43,883 nt of DNA. Origin: Folioceros fuciformis (Eukaryota). Both the position numbers and the translations under genes were made by a program. Numbering within the stretch: the first letter of the stretch is position 1; each line of letters starts with the position of its first letter. Shown piece by piece: positions 9,632-35,691 of the stretch. Location: positions 1 through 43,883 of the forward strand of contig JBNGIO010003217.1 in the NCBI GenBank assembly GCA_049999805.1, given 5' to 3'. The notes under the pieces are model-generated. The model was not told the DNA's origin, ran no database searches, and saw only the letters and a list, made by a program, of their open reading frames with translations.

Positions 9632-12600
9632 ATGGATGCCCAGAGGCGGATGGGAGAGGGGCCTCTTGGGCTGCGGACGCGCAAACAGGATGGTGGGTGC
9701 ATTTCCATGAGCTGTGCTTCGGTGCCTTTGCTGGCTTTGGTCTTCCTGCTATGGATGCCTGTGCTGGGAACATCAGCGCTCGCTCAGCAGCCCAAGAACA
9801 TTAACGTGGCGGTACGGGCCAAGTGGACAGGAACTCCTCTTCTTCTAGAGGCTGGGTGAGTACAGTGAGGCTAGTCAATTTCGTTAAATTCATCATCCCA
9901 TTGGCTGGGGGTGAAGCGAAGGTGATTAGTATTGTGGTTGAATTGGGCTCCAAGATTTGTTGCTCTGTGTGCAATTCAGGTGGTGCGGATGGCAACTTGA
10001 GTTCGTCTGCTGGTGGGTTAGCGTCCTGCTCTGGAATTAAATGCTTGGGGTTTTTGCTGCAGGGAGCTTGTAGCAAAAGAGAACGAGGAAGCTTTCTGGG
10101 ATTTTGTAAGGAAATGGGTAGGGGATGGGCAGGGATCTGGCTCTGAAACAGATGCAGAATGCGTCCATCGTATATTGAGGCACGGAAAGTCTGTCCTTGG
10201 TGATCACCTCGGGAATCTTCTGCATTTGTCCCTGGCTGTACGAGCAGCGTCTCCTAAACTCGTTCTGTTTCGGCAGCTGGCGCAAGAATCACTGTCGATC
10301 AGAGCAGGGGATAAGGATGTGCCGAAGGATGGATCAGGGGGGCCTGATGGTAATCGATGGGCTGTTGGCTCCAACCCACAGGCGCCGGACGGGGAGTGCT
10401 GCTGGGTGGATGTGGGGTCTCGTCTGGTGTTTGGTGAAGGGGATCTGTCTCACTGGCTTAAGTCGGTTGAAGACCGACCTTCTGATCACACTGTTTCTCC
10501 GGAGTTATTCGAGCTTGATCATATTTTCCCTGGTTCCGAGGGGGGAAATGTTGTGGCGGTACTGTACGGTGCTCTGGGCACGCGCTGCTTTCAGAGACTT
10601 CATGCTCTGCTATCCAAGTCTGCTGAGCAAGGTCTCGTGAAGTATGCACTGCGCCCTGTGCTGCCTTCTGGATGCGAGGCTGCCAGTGGAGCATGTGGGA
10701 CGGTGGGAGCTGGTGGAATCGTGAACCTGGGAGGTTATGGTGTGGAGCTCGCTCTTAAGAACATGGAATACACTGCCATTGATGACAGTGATCTGAAGAA
10801 GGGCGGTGATGGAACATCTGAGACCCGGGAGGAGGGTAATGCGGAAGAACAGCAGGCTGACTCGGATGGAGAGGTTGACAGCCTTAGGGATCACCTCCTG
10901 TCATCAGAAATCGCTGATCAAGTCAATGTCGAGGAGCTGAAGGACCTGGGGTTCCAGGCAGCTCAGGTCATTCTTGGAGCACCAGAGACTCTGCAGATGA
11001 TGCAAGACATCAACCAAAACCTTCCCAAGCTTGTATCCTGGCTTGCACATGCACAGCCTAACGAGACACTTAGACAAGAGATTGTGTCCAATCAGAAGCT
11101 GGTGCAAGCAGGTAAGAACCTACTTGCAATCAATGGGGCCCTTATCGGTACTGATACTGTTGATTTGTTCACTTTGCTTGATCTAATCCAAGGGGAGCTG
11201 TCCCTGGCTGACAAGATCAGGAAGCTGACGGTGCCGTCCAAGTATGTTAAGAGATTGCTTCAAATATCCGAGCCAACAGAGCAAAGTACAGTTCGTGTTG
11301 ACTTCCGCTCCCAGAAGTTTGTTCATTACTTGAATAACCTGGAGGAGGATTCTGTCTACCGGAGATGGTCAAATAATCTGAACCAGCTACTGATGCCAGT
11401 GTACCCTGGGCAGCTCCGCTATGTGCGAAAGAATCTTTATCATGCGGTTTATGTCATTGACCCAGCTTCAGCTACTGGTCTTGGATTGGTTGAAACCATA
11501 ATGATATACTACCAGAATTCTGTTCCTATGCGATTTGGTCTTATTTTAGTGGCACCAAAGGTCTTGCATAAAGTTGACCTGCAACATGGTGATGAAGAGC
11601 ATAAGGAGGGAACATCCAGCATTGACGAAGATCCTTCAAGTATGGCAATCAAGGCTTTTTTCTATTTAAAGGAGTCCTTGGGAGTTGCCTCAGCTTTTGA
11701 ATTTCTTCACGCACTGAACACCATTCGCGAGGATTATGATGACGATGAAGTCGATTACGTTTCTCTTTCTAATGTACACTCTGCCTTCTTGGACTTCCTG
11801 AAACAGTATGACAGAGCTGGTCAGGATCTTTGGAAGGATCTGCAGAGTGGGGCTCAGTATGGCGACGTGGCTTTGAAAAGCAGTCTGCATGCTCATAAAC
11901 TTGGCCTTTCCCAGATTCAGCCTTGTCTGTTGATGAATGGTTTGTTCTACGATGAAAGCCAGGTGCAGCAGGCCGCAATGTTGGCTATGAATGAGGAGCT
12001 TCCTCGGATCCAGGAAGGAGTCTACTTCGGCACCATCAATTATCGAACTGATGTACTTGACAAATTTCTCTCAGAGAACGGCCATGCTCGGTATAATCCC
12101 CAAATTCTTGGACCTGCATCTGATTCAAATAAGTATGTGTCTCTGACAGAGCCTATAACTGTAAATCAGTCAACACTGGCAAAGCTTCAGTACGTCCATT
12201 CTCCTGGTACTGAGGATGACGTGAAGCCAATCACCCACTGGCTTGCTCTTGATTTATCTAGTAGTACTGGGCGAGATCTTCTTCTAGAAGCAGCTCGCTA
12301 TCTGTCCAGGAGCCCAACTAAGTCTCGAGTTGCAGTGCTCCACAATGCTGAAAACCTCAGCCATGTGGCTGCGACACCTAAAACCATCAGCATTGTATAT
12401 GCAGCCATTAACTCCCCAACTCGTCGAGCTAAAGTGGTACCCTTCCTGGAAAGCTTCCTGGCTTCACAAGCATTGCAGGATTTTGATGAAGGCAAGCTAG
12501 ATTCTGAAGATCTTTTGAAAGAATCATCACACATTGCAATCCAGGTTGGCCTCAAGGCTGATCACATAGAGGCTTCTCTCTCTGATGCCACATATCTTGC

Positions 12601-14773
12601 TTCAGCTATGAAAAGAATGGCCGAGGAACGGGCTCTCTTGTCCACTCTGTTTGGTCTCCGGCCAGGTCAGGATGCTGTGATAACAAATGGACGAGTCTTT
12701 GTCCAGGACAAGGGGAAGTATTTTGTTGCAGAAGACTTTCCACTGCTAGATGCGGTCCACTATGAAAAGAGGGTTAAGCCTGTGCAGGAGGTTGTCTCTG
12801 AGATTGAATGGATGGATGTTGAGCCAGATGATATAACCAGTGAATTTCTAAGCACGGTTATTATGGCGGTCTCGTCATCCATGGCGGCAAGATCAAGAAC
12901 TCCTGATTCTGCGCGGTTTGACTTGCTGCAGGGGGACCACAGTGCCATTGTAAGGCAAGTGGATGATGCCGACGTTCATGTGGATGCTATTATTGATCCT
13001 TTGAGCTCAAACGGACAGAGACTGACTTCGCTTCTGGTGCTTCTGGAAGAATGGTTGCATCCAAGCATGCGGATCCTCTTGAATCCATCAAGTGGTCTAT
13101 CTGACTTGCCTTTAAAGAATTTTTACCGATATGTGGTGCCAGCGAAAGAGGATGGCGCCTCACGCGGTCCGCTTACTCCTGGTCCTGTTGGCCAGTTTTT
13201 AAACATGCCTCCTTCTAGGACAATGACCATGAACCTTGACGTTCCAGAACCTTGGTTGGTGGAACCAGTCATAGCAGTACATGATCTGGACAACATTGTG
13301 CTTGAGAAGCTCAGTGGACGAACCATGCTTGCAGTTTTCGAGCTGGAAGCATTGGTTGTCACGGGGCAGTGCTATGAGAAGGGTCTTGAACCACCAAGAG
13401 GACTCCAATTGGTTTTGGGCACTAAGTTCGTGCCACACATGGTGGACACCATTGTCATGGCAAACCTAGGCTACTGGCAATTGAAAGCCGCGCCTGGAGT
13501 TTTTAACCTCAAGCTGGCACCAGGCAAGTCCACGGAGCTGTACACTCTGCAGGGACCAGGAGAGGGCACTGATACTGGTCCAGCTGAGAGAAGACTTGTC
13601 GTAAAGTCTCTCGCAGGGGAGGTGGTTCGTCTGGAAGTTGTGAAGAAGAAGGGCAAGGAGAATCAGAAAATGGTTGATGCAGACGATGACCTGGATGATG
13701 CGTCTTCAAATGAAGCAACTGAACGAAAAAGGGGGAAGTCGAAGACTGCAGGTATTTTTAAGTGGGCTACAAACTTCATGGGTTTGCACAGAGAGTCCGA
13801 GCTCCAACCTGCATCCTCGGGTGGACATCATAAAGACAGGCATGGCGAGACTATCAACATATTTTCCATAGCATCTGGTCACCTTTATGAAAGGTTCTTG
13901 AAGATAATGATGTTGAGTGTTTTGAACAACACGAAGCGACCTGTCAAGTTTTGGTTCATCAAGAACTATTTGTCACCCCAGTTCAAGGATGTGATCCCCC
14001 ATATGGCCAAGGAGTATGGATTTGAGTATGACCTTGTGACCTACAAGTGGCCTTCGTGGTTGCACAAACAGACAGAGAAGCAGAGACTGATCTGGGCCTA
14101 CAAGATCTTGTTCCTTGACGTCATCTTCCCCTTGTCCCTGAAGAAGGTGATTTTTGTTGATGCTGACCAGATCGTCCGAACTGATATCGGCGAGCTTTAC
14201 GACATGCATATCGGAGGGAGGCCTCTAGCTTATACTCCATTTTGCGACAACAACAAAGACATGGATGGATACCGCTTTTGGAATCAGGGGTTCTGGAAGG
14301 ATCATCTACGTGGGAAACCGTATCATATCAGTGCCCTTTATGTAGTTGACCTCGTGAAGTTTCGACAGACGGCAGCGGGTGACAAGCTTCGTGTGTTCTA
14401 TGAAAGTCTTAGCAAGGATCCAAACAGCTTGTCCAACCTGGATCAGGATTTGCCAAATTACGCACAACATACGGTTCCAATCTTCTCGCTGCCGCAACAA
14501 TGGTTGTGGTGTGAGTCCTGGTGTGGGAATGTCACCAAGTCACAAGCAAAGACCATTGATCTGTGCAACAATCCTATGACGAAGGAACCGAAGCTTGATG
14601 GGGCTCGTCGAATTGTTGCTGAGTGGCCTGCCCTCGATGAGGAAGCCAGAGAATTCACAGCAAGGATACTCCATGGGGATGATGTTCAACCACGTCCTGC
14701 AACACCTGTTGTTGAAAATATCCGGGAAACTTCTCAGGCTAGCAGGGATCCGGAAACTGTGGCCGAGTTGTAG
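9632..14773 (+). CDS. UGGT: UDP-glucose:glycoprotein glucosyltransferase, 2 exons
   Basis: Exon 1 is 9632 (or 9707)-9855, with a signal peptide and KNINVAVRAKWTGTPLLLEAG. Intron 9856-10062 (GT..AG, phase 2). Exon 2 is 10063-14773, uninterrupted. Motifs: GYGVELALKNMEY, DTIVMANLGYWQ, GT24 domain INIFSIASGHLYERF, FVDADQ, NLDQDLPN, WLWCESWC; C-terminal VAEL is ER-retention-like. Confidence 0.97.
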
Positions 14774-16368: not shown

Positions 16369-18092
16369 TTAAACATCTCTGGGATCAACGAACAGGCTGG
16401 ACGATGGTGCAGAGCTGCACCAGTCAAATAGATCTGAGCCGGAGAGTGGTTCCAGCGCAAGATTGGGATCAGTGAGAGCATCGAGGTTGCCATCACAAAG
16501 TATGGTGTTGTCCAGCCACTTAGCCCTGTTGCAGATGGCGACTGACTCTGTTAGATTCCTGTCTGAGCCCTTCTGCAACCGCTTTACACTCCAGAGATCG
16601 TCCGCAGAAGAAAGGACTTTCCAGTGTGGTATCACATTTCTCAAGGGATCTTGTGCCCCTACTTCCGACATCACCACACCGCAGCCATTCCTAAGAGCAA
16701 GGTTGTGAACATGCCAGCACAGTGCAGACAACAACTCTGCTGCCCTTGGGCCTTCCGCGTGTAACCCGAACATGAAGTGCATCCCGAAAGGTGTGAATAG
16801 ATTGGGAATAGAGGGGACGCCAAATCCGGGAAGGGCCCAGTCTGCTAACCTGGAGGCAGCGGCTAGTGCTCTGATAGTCCGCGACACTCCTGTCACTTCT
16901 AGGGAGAAAATCTCATTGCACTTCCAGATGCTAAGCATGGCCCAAGATCCAGGCTTCACTGCTCGTTCTGTTCCGGAACATGGCGTCCAGCACTCGTCGT
17001 GATTGGCACTCTTACAAGGACCCTCATTGCAAAGCCTCCCCAAACCCAGCAGTTCGTCTTCTTGCATTCTAGCAACCCAGGTCCCGGCACAGAGTTTGGA
17101 TCCGAGCACCGCGTCGATGTCTTTGGGGAAAAATTCTTGGGCACCAAGAACAGATCTGTAAAGCAGAGTAGCGCTGGTGGGGCTGATCTTCAACACTTTG
17201 ACATCTGCAGGGATGGGCCGCGGGTGAACGAACACGGGGTGAATCAAGATGACAGGAGTTCTAAAGGGAATATACTGGAGCTTCTCGTTGAAGAGCTTGA
17301 CAGATGGCTCATTATCCTTCACTGTCGCGACATACACATACTCTGCTCCATGTTGTTTGCACCAGTCTTCCATCTTCATAACCAACCTCATGGCAATCCG
17401 CAGTCTCCTGTGGACCAGTAACTACGGCATGGTCAGAACACAGTCCGCGGACCACTCAGAACTATTCCACGTCGAACCCAAAAAAAAAAAGACTTTCAAA
17501 CCACATCAGCAGCATCCCCCCCGCCAGTAGCACTGAAGGTGTGACTCCAAAGCAAAGATCCGTCGCCTAAACACCAGATCTCACTACCCCACCATGCCAC
17601 ATCCTCCATACACAAAGGCTCACCTGTGCGTGGGGGAGACACGCAATCCACAAAGATACCCAATCTTTGCATACAGAGGCGAGATGCCCACTTTAAGCTT
17701 AGCATTGATCGTTTCTTTGTGACACACCACTTCCTTCACCCCCGCTCTAACGACACCGACGATTTCATCCTGCAGCTCAGCCACCTGCAAAAACATTCCA
17801 TTCCACGACGACTGAGGCTCGTGGCACCATCCCATTTCTCAACAGGCAGGCGGAATCAAACAACACAACGGAGCTTGGACAGAAATAGTACCAGCATCTC
17901 GTACGCTGGAAAATGCCGAACTCGGCCCAACGGATCTCCCAGCAGGTCAGCGCGCAGAGAGGCAGTGCTACCGTTTCCCGTCTCGCATTTCCTCTCCAGC
18001 TCTTCCACTCTTCTCAAATCCGAAGGAGCGTAGGTTCTCACGGTCAAATTCTTCGCCACCGACAGCTCGTCTGTAGCAACACTTGAACCCAT
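16369..18092 (-). CDS. HLS1: HOOKLESS1-like GNAT N-acetyltransferase, 3 exons, 466 aa
   Basis: Exons 18092-17892, 17784-17624, 17407-16369. Motifs DLLGDPLGRVRH, GLRVSPTHRR, FRTPVILIHPV, EFFPKDID, IPHWK..S..DLW and C-terminal LFVDPRDV. Confidence 0.93.
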
Positions 18093-19299: not shown

Positions 19300-20783
19300 T
19301 CATTTCTTATGCGCGTGCCTTTTAGCCTTGTTCTTCGCATCTCCGGTTTGACTTGGGACATCGAGGCGCGGGAGAATCCACAGGAGCGGGTGTTGGGTGC
19401 CAAAGAGCTCTATCAAGTTGCACCATCCTGCACTCGTTGAGGCCTTCTTCACTCTTGCGGTGAGGCCCACTTGTATGGACTCCAAGTAGTTGTGGCCTTG
19501 GTATATATAGTAGAGCTGATGGTACAGCAGGACGGACACGCCCACCAGGATGGACAAGCAAGAGAGTGTGAGGAAGATGAGAACCAGAGCTCTTATGGAT
19601 AACATCACATGTGCTGATATCAAAGCATTCAATGCATTTGAAGCTAGTGTGGTTTCAATGGGCAGTCCTAGGGCTTTCACACTTGAGCCATCCTGGAATT
19701 TGATGACACTTGGCCAAACAAGAAATCCAGCTAGCAGAATCAAGCATAATGCATATGAGGTGCCCACTAGAGTGTAAACCAAAAAGAGCAAAAAATATCG
19801 CATGTTCTTTGCTCCCACACAGTTTCCTATCTGCAATTCACAAAGTGATGCCATTAGTAGGCAGTCCATTTGGTTCCTACTTGATCTCCACGAATGCAAA
19901 TGAAGCATAAAGATCTCCACAAATGCAAAGGAAGCATAAAGAAGAAACTCACAAATGGACAGTGGTGATCCAAGTCTTGCACACAAACATAGCAAGTGCT
20001 GCAGTGATGGACTCTTGGTGCTTTAGGGATTTTGCACATGGTGCAAAATCGATATCCTTCAAGACCCCTTTCAACAACTACATCCACACTTCCCCATGGT
20101 GTTGGCAGAGGTGGTCCAGTAGATATAGAAGCAGCCATTATATAGTTGAAGAGAACATTCAATGCAAAAAATATAGTCACAACAGAATGAACAAAATAGT
20201 TCAATGAGTAGTCAAAAAATATCAGTGGGAATACAGCCCAAATTCCTCCATCTGCCGTCAAATCAAGATACAAGCATCAACAACAGACTTTGTCTTGCAA
20301 CAGCACTTTCACAAAGCATATGTTGCATTCATAAAGAAGACAAACATTGTCAAGGAGATGGAAGAAAGCAATAACAAAAGAATGCAAGAACGTACACACT
20401 ATGACAGTGAAGAAGATGAGAACAATAGCCATAAGCAACCAATCTCTAACTTTATTCCATCTCATCCATTGATTTTGTTTCTCCTTTCTCTCTTCATTGT
20501 TAGTAATGGCACCACACCACGCACACTTAAAGAGTCGTGCAAATGACACAAGATACAATTGCTGCCCACAACCCCAACATGTTGTTTCATATGGTTTTGC
20601 AACACCTTCTGTTGTGGCATCCTCCTAAGAAGAGAAGACTCTCAATAAGTATCAAGCATTCTTGCTTACAAGAGATGTTGAAACCTTCTGAAAAAGCCAA
20701 CAAACCTCACAAGATCTTTTGTCCTCCATGCTCTTCTTATCCAGAAGAAGCAAACGATCTTCATCCACCATTTGTTTGTGCAT
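19300..20783 (-). CDS. PAT11: DHHC protein S-acyltransferase (PAT11-like), 4 exons
   Basis: Exons 20783 (start uncertain)-20685, 20624-20396, 20251-19953, 19830-19300. N-terminal CWGCG...FKCAWCGAIT zinc motif, then HHCSTC..CVQDLDHHCPF|IGNCVG and 4 hydrophobic helices. Confidence 0.92.
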
Positions 20784-25912: not shown

Positions 25913-26755
25913 ATGGAGTGTCCCCTTATCCGGGAGGTATGGGCAAGCAATCTAGAAAGTGAGTTCTACTTCATACGGAACATTGTAGATGATTACCCTT
26001 TCGTGGCTATGGACACGGAGTTCCCTGGCCTCGTGGCACGGCTGAATCCGGTAAATTTCAAGAACTCTGCAGAGTACCAGTATGCAGCTCTGCAGACGAA
26101 TGTGGATAAGCTCAAGCTCATACAGCTTGGCCTAACATTCTCTGACGCGAAAGGAAATCTGCCGGTCGTCGAAGGCAGAGATTGTGTGTGGCAGTTTAAC
26201 TTCCGAGATTTCAACTTGGAGAAAGATCCCTACGCATTGGACAGTATTAATTTGCTCCGCAAGTGTGGCATCGACTTCGACGGTTTCAGAGAAAAAGGCG
26301 TAGAGGCCATTCAATTTGCTGAGCTGCTCATATCCTCCGGTGTTGTGCTCAACGACAAACTGCTCTGGATCACGTTCCATTCCTGTTACGATTTCGGTTA
26401 TTTACTGAAGACAATCACAAATAAAGGCCTTCCATCGGACGAGGATAGCTTCTTCCGCTTGGTGCATTGTTACTTCCCCTTAGAGATAGATATCAAGCAC
26501 CTTATGAGCGTCTCCGGAAATTTACGGTGTGGACGATTCTATGGCGGCTTGGAGAGGCTGGCAGATATGTTAGGAGTGCCGCGAGTTGGACCTTCCCATC
26601 AGGCCGGGTCTGACTCTCTGTTAACTTCCCGTGTCTTCTTCGCCTTATTAGAACAGAAGATCGCCAACTTTGAAGACATAATGAAGCATCGAGGGATGGT
26701 GTATGGATTGGGAGGGGTAGAGGAAGTAGATTTGCCAAGTGTCGCGCCAGGTTAG
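25913..26755 (+). CDS. CAF1: CCR4-associated factor 1 (DEDD poly(A) deadenylase), intronless, 280 aa
   Basis: IREVWASNL, AMDTEFPG, KLIQLGLTFSD, WQFNFRDF, TFHSCYDFGY, HQAGSDSLLT. All DEDDh residues are present. Confidence 0.96.
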   Translation: MECPLIREVWASNLESEFYFIRNIVDDYPFVAMDTEFPGLVARLNPVNFKNSAEYQYAALQTNVDKLKLIQLGLTFSDAKGNLPVVEGRDCVWQFNFRDFNLEKDPYALDSINLLRKCGIDFDGFREKGVEAIQFAELLISSGVVLNDKLLWITFHSCYDFGYLLKTITNKGLPSDEDSFFRLVHCYFPLEIDIKHLMSVSGNLRCGRFYGGLERLADMLGVPRVGPSHQAGSDSLLTSRVFFALLEQKIANFEDIMKHRGMVYGLGGVEEVDLPSVAPG

Positions 26756-31234: not shown

Positions 31235-34200
31235 ATGAAGCAAGCTGGTGGTCTCAAGGCTCTGATTAGAAGCAAGCCTGCTTCCCTTTGCCCTTTGGGC
31301 GATTGCTGGAGATGTCTTTCGCTGTCGCGGGGCTCATCAGCAACGAGCACTTCTGCAGCTTATGATTGTGCATGGGGGGACGGTGGATCGGAGAAGGTAA
31401 TTCTCACATTCATCAGCGCCCATTTGAAAGATCTGCTCTGAAAGGATTTAGGTGGCACAGTAGTTCTTGACATGGATCGTTTCAGGGGCGCTGCAACCCG
31501 TGGGAATCTGTGAGTGGGGCAAGTGTACAATTCACAGGCCTTCATAAAAAGCTAGGAGTCACAAACACTGCGTGGGAAGGATTCTACCAACGGAGTGAGG
31601 TCTCTGGCAGGTCTAACTTGCTCTCGCTCGCAATCATCTCCTTTGAATGGAATGTATGTTGTTGGCATGCTGAAGCTACATAGCAGTGGCAGGCTGATGG
31701 GGACCAGAATCAGCCTTGCAGGTTGGGAAGTTGTAAGGAGACTTTGGAGTGTGCAACTTGGGGGAAATCGTGTGAAGAAGAGCAGCTCAATGAAGTCGTT
31801 AAGGCTTTGGACTTCCTGGTCCAGCGGGAGTGTTATGTTCCGGCGTCTATTTTTCATACCGTCATCAAGGGGTGCACTGCAGATCAGGATGTGGTTGCTG
31901 GCAGGCATGTGCATGCGCTCACAGTTCAAAGTGGCCATGAGTCAAACACATCCTTGGCGAACAAAATCATCTCTATGTATGCTGCTCACGGGAAGTTACA
32001 GTGGGCTACACAGGTGTTCAGTAGTGTGGCTGCACCAAGTTCGTCTACTTGGGCTTCCATGATTTTAGCCTTCGCTCAGCATGGGGAGCCCTGGCAAGCT
32101 ATCAACATGTATCGGCAAATGCGAGAAGCTGCGGTAGAGCCAACAAGCCATATATTTGTGGCCGTCCTTAAAGCGTGTGCTAGGGCTGCAGACTTGGCAT
32201 CTGGCAAGGAGGTGCATGCTGACATTCTGGGCAGTGTGGTGCAGCCCAATACATTTGTTGGAAACTGCCTGGTGACCATGTATGCAAAATGTGGGAGTGT
32301 AGCAGATGCTCGCAGAGTATTTGACAGCTTGCCCACAAAGGATTTGGCAACATGGAACGCTATGATTGCAGGATATGCTCAACATGGCTTCGGTCAACAC
32401 GCCCTTTCTCTCTTTGCAATTAAGCAACAAGAGGAAATCGCTTCAGCAAATTATGTGACATTTCTGTGTCTCTTGAAAGCCTGTGCAAGATCGCGGGCTT
32501 CAAGTGAGGGCAAAAAGCTGCACTTCCAGATTCGGAAACGAGGACTGGAAGATGATGTGGTGCTTGGCAGCAGCCTGGTGGATATGTATGCAAAATGTGG
32601 TTTATTACAAGATGCTCAGAGAGTATTTGATAGGTTGCCCAGCAAGAACGTGGTTACATGGACAGCCATCATTGGAGGATACGCCGAGCATGGTTTTGGT
32701 CAAGAAGCCCTGAATCTTTATAGTCGGATGCAAGAAGATTGTGTTAGTCCTGCCAATCATGTCACCTTTGTTTGCCTCCTGAAAGCTTGTGCCAGTGTTG
32801 GAGCTTTACACGAGGTAAAACGTGTGCACTCCCAAATACAAGAAAAGGGCCTAGATACTGACATGGCGGTCGGGAATAGACTGGTAGACTCGTACGTCAA
32901 ATGTGGGAACCTGAATGATGCTCGTGCAGTATTTGACAAATTGCCCGCCAAAGACAGCATGTCATGGAATCTCATGATCTCTGGGTATGTCCATCAGGGT
33001 TTGGGTCATGAAGCCCTTATTCTGTATGCGAGGATGGAAAAAGAAGCTGGTTCTTCATCCGATTGTTCTACATTTGGCTGCCTCCTGAGAGCATGTTCAA
33101 GCGTCAGAGCTCTTCGTCAGGGCAAGGATCTTCATGATGCAATCAAGAGACAAGGACTGGAAACTGATGATAGGCTTGGAAACAACCTGGTAGAAATGTA
33201 TGCAAAATGTGGGGCCATGGAGGATGCTCGGGGAGTCTTTGAAAGATTGCACATGAAGGATATAACATCGTGGAATGCCCTGATTGCTGCGTACGTTGAG
33301 AATGGTCAAAACTATGATGCAGTTGCTTTGTATCAGCGTATGCAAGTTGAGGGTGTTACTGAAGCCGATCGCGCCACATTCCTATCCTTATTGAAAGCAG
33401 CTGCTAGCCTTGGAGCCCTACACCAGGGTAAACAACTTCATTTCAAGATAAAGGAAAGGGGACTGGAAAGTGATGTTGTCGTTGGCAGCTGCCTGGTGGA
33501 CATGTATGCAAAATGTCACAGCTTACAGGATGCCTGTGAATTGTTTGAGAGGTTGCCCACCAAAAATGTGGTAACATGGACTGCCCTGATTACGGGATAT
33601 GCTCGCCACGGGCTTGGCAAAGAAGCATTATATCTGTTTGAAAAAATGCAACTGGACGGTGCCACTGTGGCTGATAATGTTACGTTGGGGTGTGTACTGA
33701 GAGTGTGTGCAGATGTCAGGTCTTTAGATAAGGGTAGAGAAGTACACTCGCAGATTGAAGAAAGGGGGCTGGCAGGTGATGTTATTATCGACAACAGCCT
33801 GGTGGACATGTATGCAAAATGTGGAAGTCTCGAGGAGGCCCGCAGAGTATTTGACAGATTGCCAACCAGAGACGTGTTGGCATGGAATGCCATAATTTCT
33901 GGATACGCTGAGCATGGTCTTGCTCAAGAAGCTCTGTCCCTTTTTGCAAGTATGCAAGGTGAGAGTACCATTCAAGCAGATCATATTACTTACGTGGGCC
34001 TCCTGAAAGCATGTGCACGTGTCAGGGCGTTACAGGAGGGAAAAGAGCTTCATGCCCAGATTCAGAAAAGAGGACTGGAAGGTCATGTAATTGTTGGCAA
34101 CGGTCTGATAGATATGTATGCAAAATGTGGTGATTTAGATAATGCACGTATAGTATTCGAGCGACTCCCGGCAAGGGATGTGGTAACATGGACTGCCATG

Positions 34201-35691
34201 ATTTCAGGATATGCTCAACATGGGCTTGGTCAGGAAGCCCTCTCTGTCTATGAACGTATGCTAGAGGAGGGTCTGACACCGACAGACCATGTTACATATG
34301 CTTGCCTCCTCAGAGCATGTGCCAGCATCGGATCCATACATCATGGGAAACAAGTCCATTCTCAGATTCAAAAACGAGAACTGGAGGGCGAAGTCATTAT
34401 CGGAAATGGTTTGGTTGACATGTATGCGAAATGTGGGAGTTTAGAGGATGCTCGTAGAGTGTTTGACCGATTGCCAGCAAGAGATGTTGTAACATGGACG
34501 TCCATGATATCAGGTTACGCACAGCAGGGGCTAGGGCAAGAAGCCCTTGTTCTGTACGATAGTATGCAACAGGAGGATATCGCTGCTGATCCTGTTACTT
34601 TTGTTTGCCTCTTGAAAGCTTGTGCTAGCATCGGAGCCGTAAATCAGGGAAAGAAGATTCATTCTCAGATTCAGGAAAGGGGACTGGACTGTGATCTGGT
34701 CGTCGGGAACGCGTTAGTGGACATGTATGCAAAATGTGGAGATCTTGCTGACGCTCGCAGTGTATTTGACAAGTTTCCTTCCCGAGATGTGGTGTCCTGG
34801 ACTGCTCTGTTGAATGGATATTGCCAACATAGTAATGGTCAAATGGCAATTGACTGTTTTGAAGAGATGCGGCAAGATGGGGTGGAGCCCAATGATGCCA
34901 CATTTATTTGTTTGCTTGTAGCATGCAGTCACGAGGGCCTGGTGAATGAAGGTCAGCAGTTCTTTAAAGTAATGGTGGAAGACTATTCTCTAGAGCCCAC
35001 AGTTCACCACTATTGTTGCATGGTTGATCTTCTTGGGCGGTCCGGCCATCTAGAAGAAGCAGAGCATCTGTTGCGCAGTATGCCAGTTCCCAGTGACGTA
35101 GTGGGCTGGACGTCACTACTGAATGCCTGTAAATACCTCGGCGACATAGATCGTGGGAGGAAATGCTTTGACCGTCTCCATGCACTGGAACCTCAAAATG
35201 GAGCTGCTTACATGGTCATGGAATGCATCTATCGAGATGCTGGTAGGTGGGAGGACGTTGAGTGTCTCCAAGCCTTAAGAAAGTCCGCCGGGGTTTGCAA
35301 GAAACCTGCAAGGGCTTGGATTGAAGTAAACAGCAAGGTCCACACATTCTGCGTGGGGGAAGGAAGGGATGACATCTCCTCTAAGCTAAGAAGTGTGAAC
35401 ATGTGGCTGGAGGAAGATCTTGGACATGTGTCACAGGCAGAAGCTCCTGCTGACAGAAAGAAGCAGGATGCCTTGTGTGGACATGCTGAGAAACTGGCGT
35501 TAGCCTACGGTCTTCTGAACACTGCAGATGGCACAACTCTTCTAGTCACCAAGAATCTCCGTATGTGCAATGACTGCCACAGCGGCACGAAAGCTATGTC
35601 GAGGTTAGAACAGCGAGAGATCATAGTTCGAGATGCACACCGCGTTCACCATTTTGTGAACGGCTTCTGCTCCTGTGGGGATCTGGTATGA
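31235..35691 (+). CDS. PLS-class PPR protein, ~32 repeats + E1/E2 + DYW:KP-type deaminase-fold domain (candidate organellar U-to-C editing factor)
   Basis: Predicted exon 1 is 31235-31396 (MKQAGGLKALIRSK..., presequence-like, donor AG|GTAATT). Exon 2 runs from 31684/31687 to 35691. Ten L-S-P triplets, then L2-S2-E1-E2, then KKPARAWIE, ALCGHAEKLA, KNLRMCNDCH, HHF..G.CSCGDLV*. Confidence 0.95.

Follow-up and report, generated by a model that had tools for sequence, protein, structure and literature searches.

The 43,883-nucleotide stretch of Folioceros fuciformis DNA studied here (assembly GCA_049999805.1, contig JBNGIO010003217.1; the whole stretch is called the window below) is nuclear land-plant DNA. 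On its forward strand it carries a gene predicted to encode a 1335-residue PLS-class pentatricopeptide repeat (PPR) protein with a C-terminal DYW:KP domain, a deaminase-like domain linked to RNA editing. It is probable that this protein performs site-specific U-to-C editing of an organellar transcript. The domain has two peculiarities, a DLV terminus and a gating beta-finger four residues shorter than usual. As judged from alignments and trees, both are most likely lineage-specific changes in one member of the hornwort clade that contains the DRH- and GRP-ending proteins, not the marks of a separate subtype.

No candidates for enzymatic U-to-C editing are known other than the DYW:KP proteins. 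As far as the published accounts cited below go, activity has been demonstrated for consensus-designed versions only, and these work poorly and stall as RNA-protein crosslinks. The gene described here is an intact natural example from the DRH-like hornwort clade, for which the consensus design proved inactive. Its two changes lie at parts that matter in the PG type, the gating beta-finger and the residue covering the second zinc, which makes it a fair, not an outstanding, test case. As a feature of the genome the gene is ordinary. PPR families are reported to comprise hundreds to thousands of genes per land-plant genome, notably in certain hornworts, mosses, and lycophytes.

KP-type domain and its conserved residues

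A single open frame extends from stop to stop at positions 31684-35691 of the forward strand (1335 codons), and positions 35299-35691 constitute its C-terminal end. Translation of this end gives 130 residues followed by a stop. The opposite strand is closed by many stops across the same positions. The frame matches Pfam PPR families (E 3.5e-151; range over the array 1e-151 to 1e-61), the E motif (E 3.3e-11, at residues 1141-1201 of the 1322-residue open reading frame), and DYW_deaminase, PF14432 (E 4.6e-31 for the full frame and 5e-33 for the 130 residues alone). All of these matches are far above chance. Motif parsing and the Pfam PPR matches place a PLS-type array of ~33 motifs at 31843..35097 (+), with regular S(31)-P(35/36)-L(35) triplets and a closing P2-L2-S2. 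The array is followed by the helix-turn-helix motifs E1 and E2, 34 residues each (35098..35301, +), seen as the Pfam E_motif and as helices 67-129 of the AlphaFold model described below. The combination of a PLS-type PPR array, E1/E2, and a DYW deaminase-like domain is therefore present in one frame.

The original descriptions of the DYW:KP type are reportedly those of Gutmann et al. 2020 and Gerke et al. 2020. The hallmarks given for the type are a Lys-Pro opening instead of the PG box, the lack of the DYW tripeptide, Met at the position of V95 in the PG type, and an HxE(x)nCxxC signature in which a hydrophobic residue, usually Ala and not Ser, stands ahead of the catalytic Glu. KP domains also lack the xHP residues and have 132/133 residues in place of 136. 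DYW:KP proteins are reported solely from hornworts, lycophytes, and ferns. The window domain has the KP box KPARAWIE replacing the PG box (35302..35325, +), as seen by comparing the translation with the KP definition. It has HAE, the catalytic zinc ligand His and the catalytic Glu with Ala for Ser (35482..35490, +); this His and Glu are invariant in 40/40 aligned sequences. Met occupies the V95/M92 position, SHP is absent, and the DYW end is absent. Of the canonical DYW:PG features (PG box, HSE, a 136-residue domain, and a DYW/DFW end), 0/4 are found.

The remaining zinc motifs are CNDCH (35566..35580, +), with Met89, the M92 equivalent, just before it, and HHF...CSC, the second zinc site (35647..35676, +), where, in alignment A1, His250 and Cys259 do not vary and the conservation of Cys257 is at least 90%. 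The protein ends with GDLV (35677..35688, +). Within the 130-residue stretch, HAEKLA occupies residues 62-67, CNDCH 90-94, HHF 117-119, and CSC 124-126. Every motif listed in the initial annotation, namely KKPARAWIE, HAEKLA, CNDCH, HHF, CSC, and the GDLV end, was recovered by translation. A small correction concerns the start of the domain. In the numbering of the KP literature (G64, H65, Lys88, Met92), the domain begins at the second Lys, position 35302, and has 129 residues (35302..35688, +) versus the usual 132/133. The SHP gap is present, and the total is only 129 owing to a second 4-residue deletion; 13/55 HAE-type domains are also shorter than usual.

The initial annotation had called the domain KP-type rather than PG-type, and had suggested scoring it against profiles of the DYW classes. 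Home-made profiles, distinct from the published DYW:KP and DYW:PG hidden Markov models, were built from domains that the searches had returned, 31 of the HAE type and 71 of the PG type. The KP profile scored best, with 198.6 bits versus 141.8 for PG and 161.0 for the HCE type. The KP-minus-PG difference is +56.8 bits for the window domain. Its counterparts are a median of +51.0 (10.8 to 67.5) for leave-one-out KP members and a median of -60.7 for PG members. On the hallmarks and the profile difference, both read from sequence, the domain is of the KP type, as annotated.

An AlphaFold model of the last 263 residues has a mean predicted local distance difference test (pLDDT) score of 90.6. Its best fold matches, found with Foldseek, are the PG-type structures 9kfx, 7o4f, and 7o4e, with a template modeling score of 0.81 to 9kfx_A. 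PF14432, the KP profile, the model, and the fold matches all support the assignment of positions 35302..35688 as a DYW:KP deaminase-like domain.

The zinc ligands and the catalytic Glu are all intact, and the His, the Glu, and both Cys are invariant in the alignment. In designer KP proteins, the HAA and AxxA mutants abolish U-to-C editing, according to the published account. Lys85 (35551..35553, +) lies 23 residues past the His of HxE and is the equivalent of Lys88 of DYW:KP and of K915 of OTP86; K915 is likewise 23 residues past the HxE His, matching Lys88 after H65 (PMC7611903). Lys88 is reported to be needed for U-to-C editing by KP2, KP3, and KP6, and its mutation turns them into C-to-U editors (PMC11845758). 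The column of Met89 contains Met in 53/55 HAE-type and 24/156 HSE-type domains. In 9kfx, a PG-type protein in complex with RNA, the Asp of the DYW tripeptide is salt-bridged to a Lys, and its Trp lies over the second zinc; the Lys-Asp pair is said there to stabilize the DYW domain. The alignment with 9kfx indicates that the window domain keeps this pair as Lys98 and Asp128, and has Val130 at the place of the Trp. At positions 116 and 119, the window domain has Ala and Val, which are the consensus states. The changes D116A and I119V pushed KP6 toward U-to-C editing (PMC11845758).

Beta-finger, terminal tripeptide, and family tree

Counted from the Gly at the end of helix 1 up to the His of HxE, the finger segment has 20 residues in the window domain (35422..35481, +) versus 24 in 41/55 HAE-type domains. 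In the alignment with the closest relatives, a 4-residue gap lies between HVSQAE and APADRKKQDALC. In the alignments with the PG-type chains 9kfx and 7o4e, there are two 4-residue gaps, one being the SHP gap common to KP domains and the other lying inside the beta-finger. The segment that the initial annotation had described as ~4 residues short is thus real. In OTP86, the gating domain is the insertion H837-G891, just ahead of H892 of HSE, and its beta-finger comprises residues 870-891 (PMC7611903). By alignment, the deletion falls inside the equivalent of this beta-finger, where the pLDDT of the model drops below 50.

The length of the finger was counted in 235 full DYW domains, 55 of which are HAE-type. 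Because the domains were gathered by their similarity to a query with a short finger, the figure for the HAE type may be inflated. Among the HAE-type domains (n=55, window included), 41 have 24 residues, 13 are shorter (12-22), and 1 is longer. Among the HSE-type domains (n=156), 141 have 24 residues, 6 are shorter, and 9 are longer. The HCE-type domains (n=13) are divided into 6 with 24 residues, 6 shorter, and 1 longer. Fisher tests for short fingers gave p = 6e-5 for HAE versus HSE and 4e-5 for HCE versus HSE, with kinship ignored. The short fingers vary both in length, from 12 to 22 residues, and in sequence.

The HCE-bearing KP-like domains (e.g., P0054, P0056, P0063, and P0064) show mixed boxes such as KKPGRAWIE and KKPAKAFIE and very varied ends. 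They are placed between the HAE and HSE types in the quick tree.

The terminal tripeptides are hypervariable. In the HAE-type domains where the extracted end is the end of the protein, DRH was found 12 times, GRP 4, DLF 4, DNH 2, and DHH 2, and 26 ends are singletons, DLV among them. Over 30 different endings occur among the 55 HAE-type domains. The initial annotation had treated DLV as distinctive. It is indeed not common, as the window is its only bearer among the 55 domains, but its rarity means little because most endings are rare. DRH and GRP are described as the hornwort subgroups of KP proteins. Compared with the DRH subgroup, the last three residues are DLV instead of DRH, and only the Asp is common. 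None of the short-finger HAE-type domains ends with DRH or GRP (0/13), versus 17/42 of the others (Fisher p 0.005, uncorrected for kinship).

The relationships were analyzed with quick trees, in which most forks are weakly supported. In a masked tree of 108 columns, from which the finger columns and the last three residues were removed, the window domain falls in a 29-row clade with all 17 DRH/GRP rows (Shimodaira-Hasegawa-like approximate likelihood ratio test, SH-aLRT, 95). Its end branch is short (0.13; median 0.21), and the protein most like it, at 77% identity, has a DRH end. Apart from the finger and the tail, the window domain is thus less diverged than a typical relative. The rows closest to it belong to DRH, DNH, and VDH proteins, all with full fingers. 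The label "short" requires 10 changes for 13 rows on this tree, compared with a shuffled mean of 12.0; a value as low was obtained in 36/500 shuffles. Because of these 10 changes, the short fingers are considered to have arisen repeatedly, through about 10 independent changes, and to form no group.

The first quick tree, unmasked, had placed the window domain with P0012, P0011, and P0020 (SH-aLRT 91, below the starred level). P0012 and P0020 are short-fingered, whereas the finger of P0011 is of full length (24 residues); all three lack a DRH or GRP end. This grouping is attributed to gaps, as it dissolves when the finger and the tail are masked.

The initial annotation had interpreted DLV and the short segment as marks of a divergent subtype whose activity could differ. 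The uniqueness of DLV among the 55 HAE-type domains and the grouping in the unmasked tree are in favor of a distinct, conserved KP subtype with its own catalytic properties, but the grouping is lost after masking. The short label is spread over the tree and the nearest rows are full-fingered, while the short fingers themselves differ in length and sequence. Together with the hypervariable endings, the 13/55 short domains, and the short end branch, these results make a distinct subtype highly improbable. The DLV end and the shortened finger are most likely changes specific to the lineage of one member of the DRH/GRP hornwort clade.

Gene model and predicted activity

Upstream of the first PPR motif, no in-frame ATG was found in the long frame. 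An ATG is present at 31472, followed by a GTGAGT donor at 31510 (38 bases after the ATG), and an acceptor end, CCTTGCAG, is present at 31721. When 31509 is spliced to 31722, the frame stays uninterrupted and a protein of 1335 residues is predicted. In our reading of the sequence, the AG at 31721 is the only one in 31682-31721 that keeps the frame. The relatives P0010, P0016, P0017, and P0019 likewise start 20-30 residues ahead of the same N-terminal motif. The gene would therefore consist of a putative exon 1 (31472..31509, +; ATG, 12 codons, and 2 bases), a putative intron of 212 nucleotides read from its donor and acceptor (31510..31721, +), which restores the start codon, and a main exon containing the PPR-E1-E2-DYW:KP frame with its Pfam matches (31722..35691, +), closed by a TGA stop at 35689-35691.

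For the expression of this protein, its targeting to an organelle, its RNA target, and the direction in which it edits, we infer the following. The nuclear gene would be translated into the 1335-residue PLS-class PPR protein, and its ~33 PPR motifs would bind a single organellar transcript. Under the PPR code, with S2 set against position -4, the bases predicted from the P and S motifs are C at -34, U at -31, Y at -30, A at -28 and -27, U at -25, -24, -22, and -21, A at -19, G at -18, U at -16, -15, and -13, G at -12, U at -10, G at -9, U at -7, and A at -6. With the transcript bound, E1/E2 and the DYW:KP domain would bring the nucleotide that lies four positions downstream of the S2-aligned base into the zinc active site, which would be formed by His62, Glu64, Cys90, and Cys93. 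Lys85, the Lys88 equivalent, would attack the C4 of the uridine and yield cytidine, in what is known as U-to-C "reverse" editing. The proposal of the initial annotation that the protein is a candidate U-to-C editor is supported by its homology to the designer proteins KP2, KP3, and KP6. U-to-C is the most likely direction because of the KP hallmarks, the Lys88 equivalent, the consensus states at 116/119, and the position in a hornwort clade whose GRP-based designs, KP2 and KP3, are reported to edit U-to-C only.

Several observations weigh against U-to-C editing by this protein. The designer protein KP1, which is mainly DRH-based and represents the subgroup nearest to the window, is reported to be inactive in E. 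coli; 3/7 designer KP proteins were active there, the GRP-based KP2 and KP3 and the fern-based KP6. The KP reaction is described as stalling in vitro and in bacteria as an RNA-protein crosslink, the release step being a hypothesis and the mechanism a model in that work. The replacement of residues 875-890 of the OTP86 beta-finger by GGG markedly lowered editing (PMC7611903). In the AlphaFold model, the only stretches with pLDDT below 50 are residues 180-183 and 187-189, both in the finger segment; the same segment of P0049, a canonical relative 72% identical in the domain, has a block-mean pLDDT of 90-91. The low score may partly reflect the alignment, in which few rows have the gap of the window. 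The Lys88 column is not specific to KP: Lys is present in 55/55 HAE-type domains and also in 155/156 HSE-type domains, so that this residue is necessary, not diagnostic. The last residue, which corresponds to position 133 of KP6 and can shift the direction of editing there, is Val in the window. The start codon depends on the predicted intron, and the frame-shifted state of the adjacent PPR gene makes a local decay of PPR genes possible.

Some of these observations are what would be expected if the protein bound its RNA target with a weak or inactive DYW:KP domain, serving as a site-recognition or stabilizing factor, or if it were a young duplicate drifting to a pseudogene. A truncated gating finger with a non-canonical tail can be seen as a sign of relaxed constraint, and the lack of DRH/GRP ends among short-finger domains, the poor modeling confined to the finger, the effect of the OTP86 deletion, the inactivity of KP1, the missing in-frame ATG, and the frame shift in the neighboring PPR gene all point the same way. 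However, the 1335-codon frame has no stop inside, and the zinc ligands, the catalytic Glu, Lys85, Met89, and the Lys98-Asp128 pair are all kept. The end branch is short outside the finger, the lengths of the PPR motifs are regular, and a clean predicted intron, GTGAGT...CAG, gives back the start codon. Alanine substitutions in the gating region are also reported to affect PG-type proteins little. Loss of activity therefore seems rather unlikely. A protein active in the C-to-U direction or in both, like KP6, and not an obligate U-to-C editor, seems less likely still. In human cells KP6 edits both ways, with a balance that can be tipped by single changes (PMC11845758): E64G, L113V, and F133H, the last acting in combination, pushed it to C-to-U. 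The window domain has Gly and Val at the first two of these positions and a non-consensus Val at the third, and HAE versus HSE is reported not to settle the direction. On the other hand, Gly64 and Val113 are general KP consensus states, and KP proteins became near-complete C-to-U editors only upon mutation of Lys88, whose equivalent is present here (PMC11845758). The window domain also belongs to the hornwort DRH/GRP clade, from which the tested KP2 and KP3 are U-to-C only.

The excess of short fingers in the HAE and HCE types over the HSE type permits one more interpretation, in which the shortening of the beta-finger is a recurrent, selected loosening of autoinhibition in reverse-editing DYW domains, perhaps coupled to the loss of the DRH/GRP tail. 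We regard this as a slim chance. If it were true, the window protein would be a natural "gate-open" KP enzyme that differs in its rate, its direction, or the way it releases the edited RNA, and it would be useful as a starting point for designing better U-to-C editors. Among literature titles, there was no natural DRH-type KP protein assayed for activity and no short-finger KP variant, a survey of titles being no proof of absence. Site-specific U-to-C editing is retained as the probable function of the protein.

Neighboring genes and comparison with known systems

A second PPR gene, of the E/E+ type by its Pfam matches, is located 1.1 kb downstream on the forward strand (36797-38927). It consists of two overlapping frames, 36797-38248 and 38124-38927, with a one-base shift inside an S motif, and ends with the PG box WKKPGQSWIE, an E+ motif, and a stop. 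The gene is frame-shifted, or the shift is an assembly error or an odd intron. Neither HxE nor CxDCH was found downstream of it in any frame. With its E/E+ matches, this ruled out the downstream gene as the source of a missing or trans-acting DYW part. E+-type PPR proteins are reported to be enriched in hornworts (PMC13386178).

Several other genes lie in this stretch of nuclear land-plant DNA. A UDP-glucose:glycoprotein glucosyltransferase (UGGT) gene at 10175-14773 (+) is one uninterrupted frame of 1532 codons with all seven Pfam domains. Land-plant genes of such a size do not usually consist of a single frame, and this one may be a retrogene or may reflect an intron-poor lineage. Among its named relatives, identity is 47-49% to liverworts and mosses and 44-46% to ferns and lycophytes; one unnamed protein is 59% identical. 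The bryophyte affinity of the UGGT, the E+-type PPR gene, and the nesting of the DYW:KP domain with DRH/GRP types all fit a hornwort source. A multi-exon phosphatidylinositol-4-phosphate 5-kinase gene (MORN-PIP5K; 40983-43883, -) has N-terminal MORN repeats, a plant-type architecture, and runs past the end of the window. Open-frame matches were obtained for a partial GNAT acetyltransferase (16369-17391, -), a DHHC palmitoyltransferase (19300-19995, -), and a CAF1 ribonuclease (25913-26755, +), which are probably exons of ordinary nuclear genes.

The PDB sequence search returned only PG-type chains, as judged by the alignments and the molecule names. The PG-type structures, OTP86 (7o4e/7o4f), consPPR-DYW with RNA (9kfx), and DYW1 (7w86), have the same deaminase fold, gating insertion, and two zinc sites as the window domain. 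The sequence matches have E values from 1e-31 to 6e-26, and the Foldseek probability is 1.00. They differ in having PG instead of KP, HSE instead of HAE, Val instead of Met, and a DYW end with a Trp that covers the second zinc instead of a Val end.

The designer proteins with demonstrated U-to-C activity, KP2 and KP3 from hornwort GRP proteins and KP6 from ferns, share the HAE..CxxC site and Lys88 with the window domain. In GRP proteins, the terminal Asp and its Lys partner are reported to be replaced, whereas the window domain keeps both. KP6 has Glu64 and a Phe end, unlike the window domain (PMC11845758). For KP2, KP3, and KP6, the text of the published accounts describes no shortened finger.

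The most similar known system is the hornwort DRH subgroup of DYW:KP proteins, the basis of KP1 (Ichinose et al. 2022, PMC9478123). Its members are described as having the KP box, HAE, the Lys88 and Met92 equivalents, no SHP, and the Asp of the tripeptide with its Lys partner, all as in the window domain. DRH proteins are up to 77% identical to it outside the finger and the tail and fall in the same clade with SH-aLRT 95. The window protein is distinguished from them by its DLV end, a finger of 20 instead of 24 residues, a domain of 129 versus 132/133 residues, and an unusually long PPR array of ~33 motifs.

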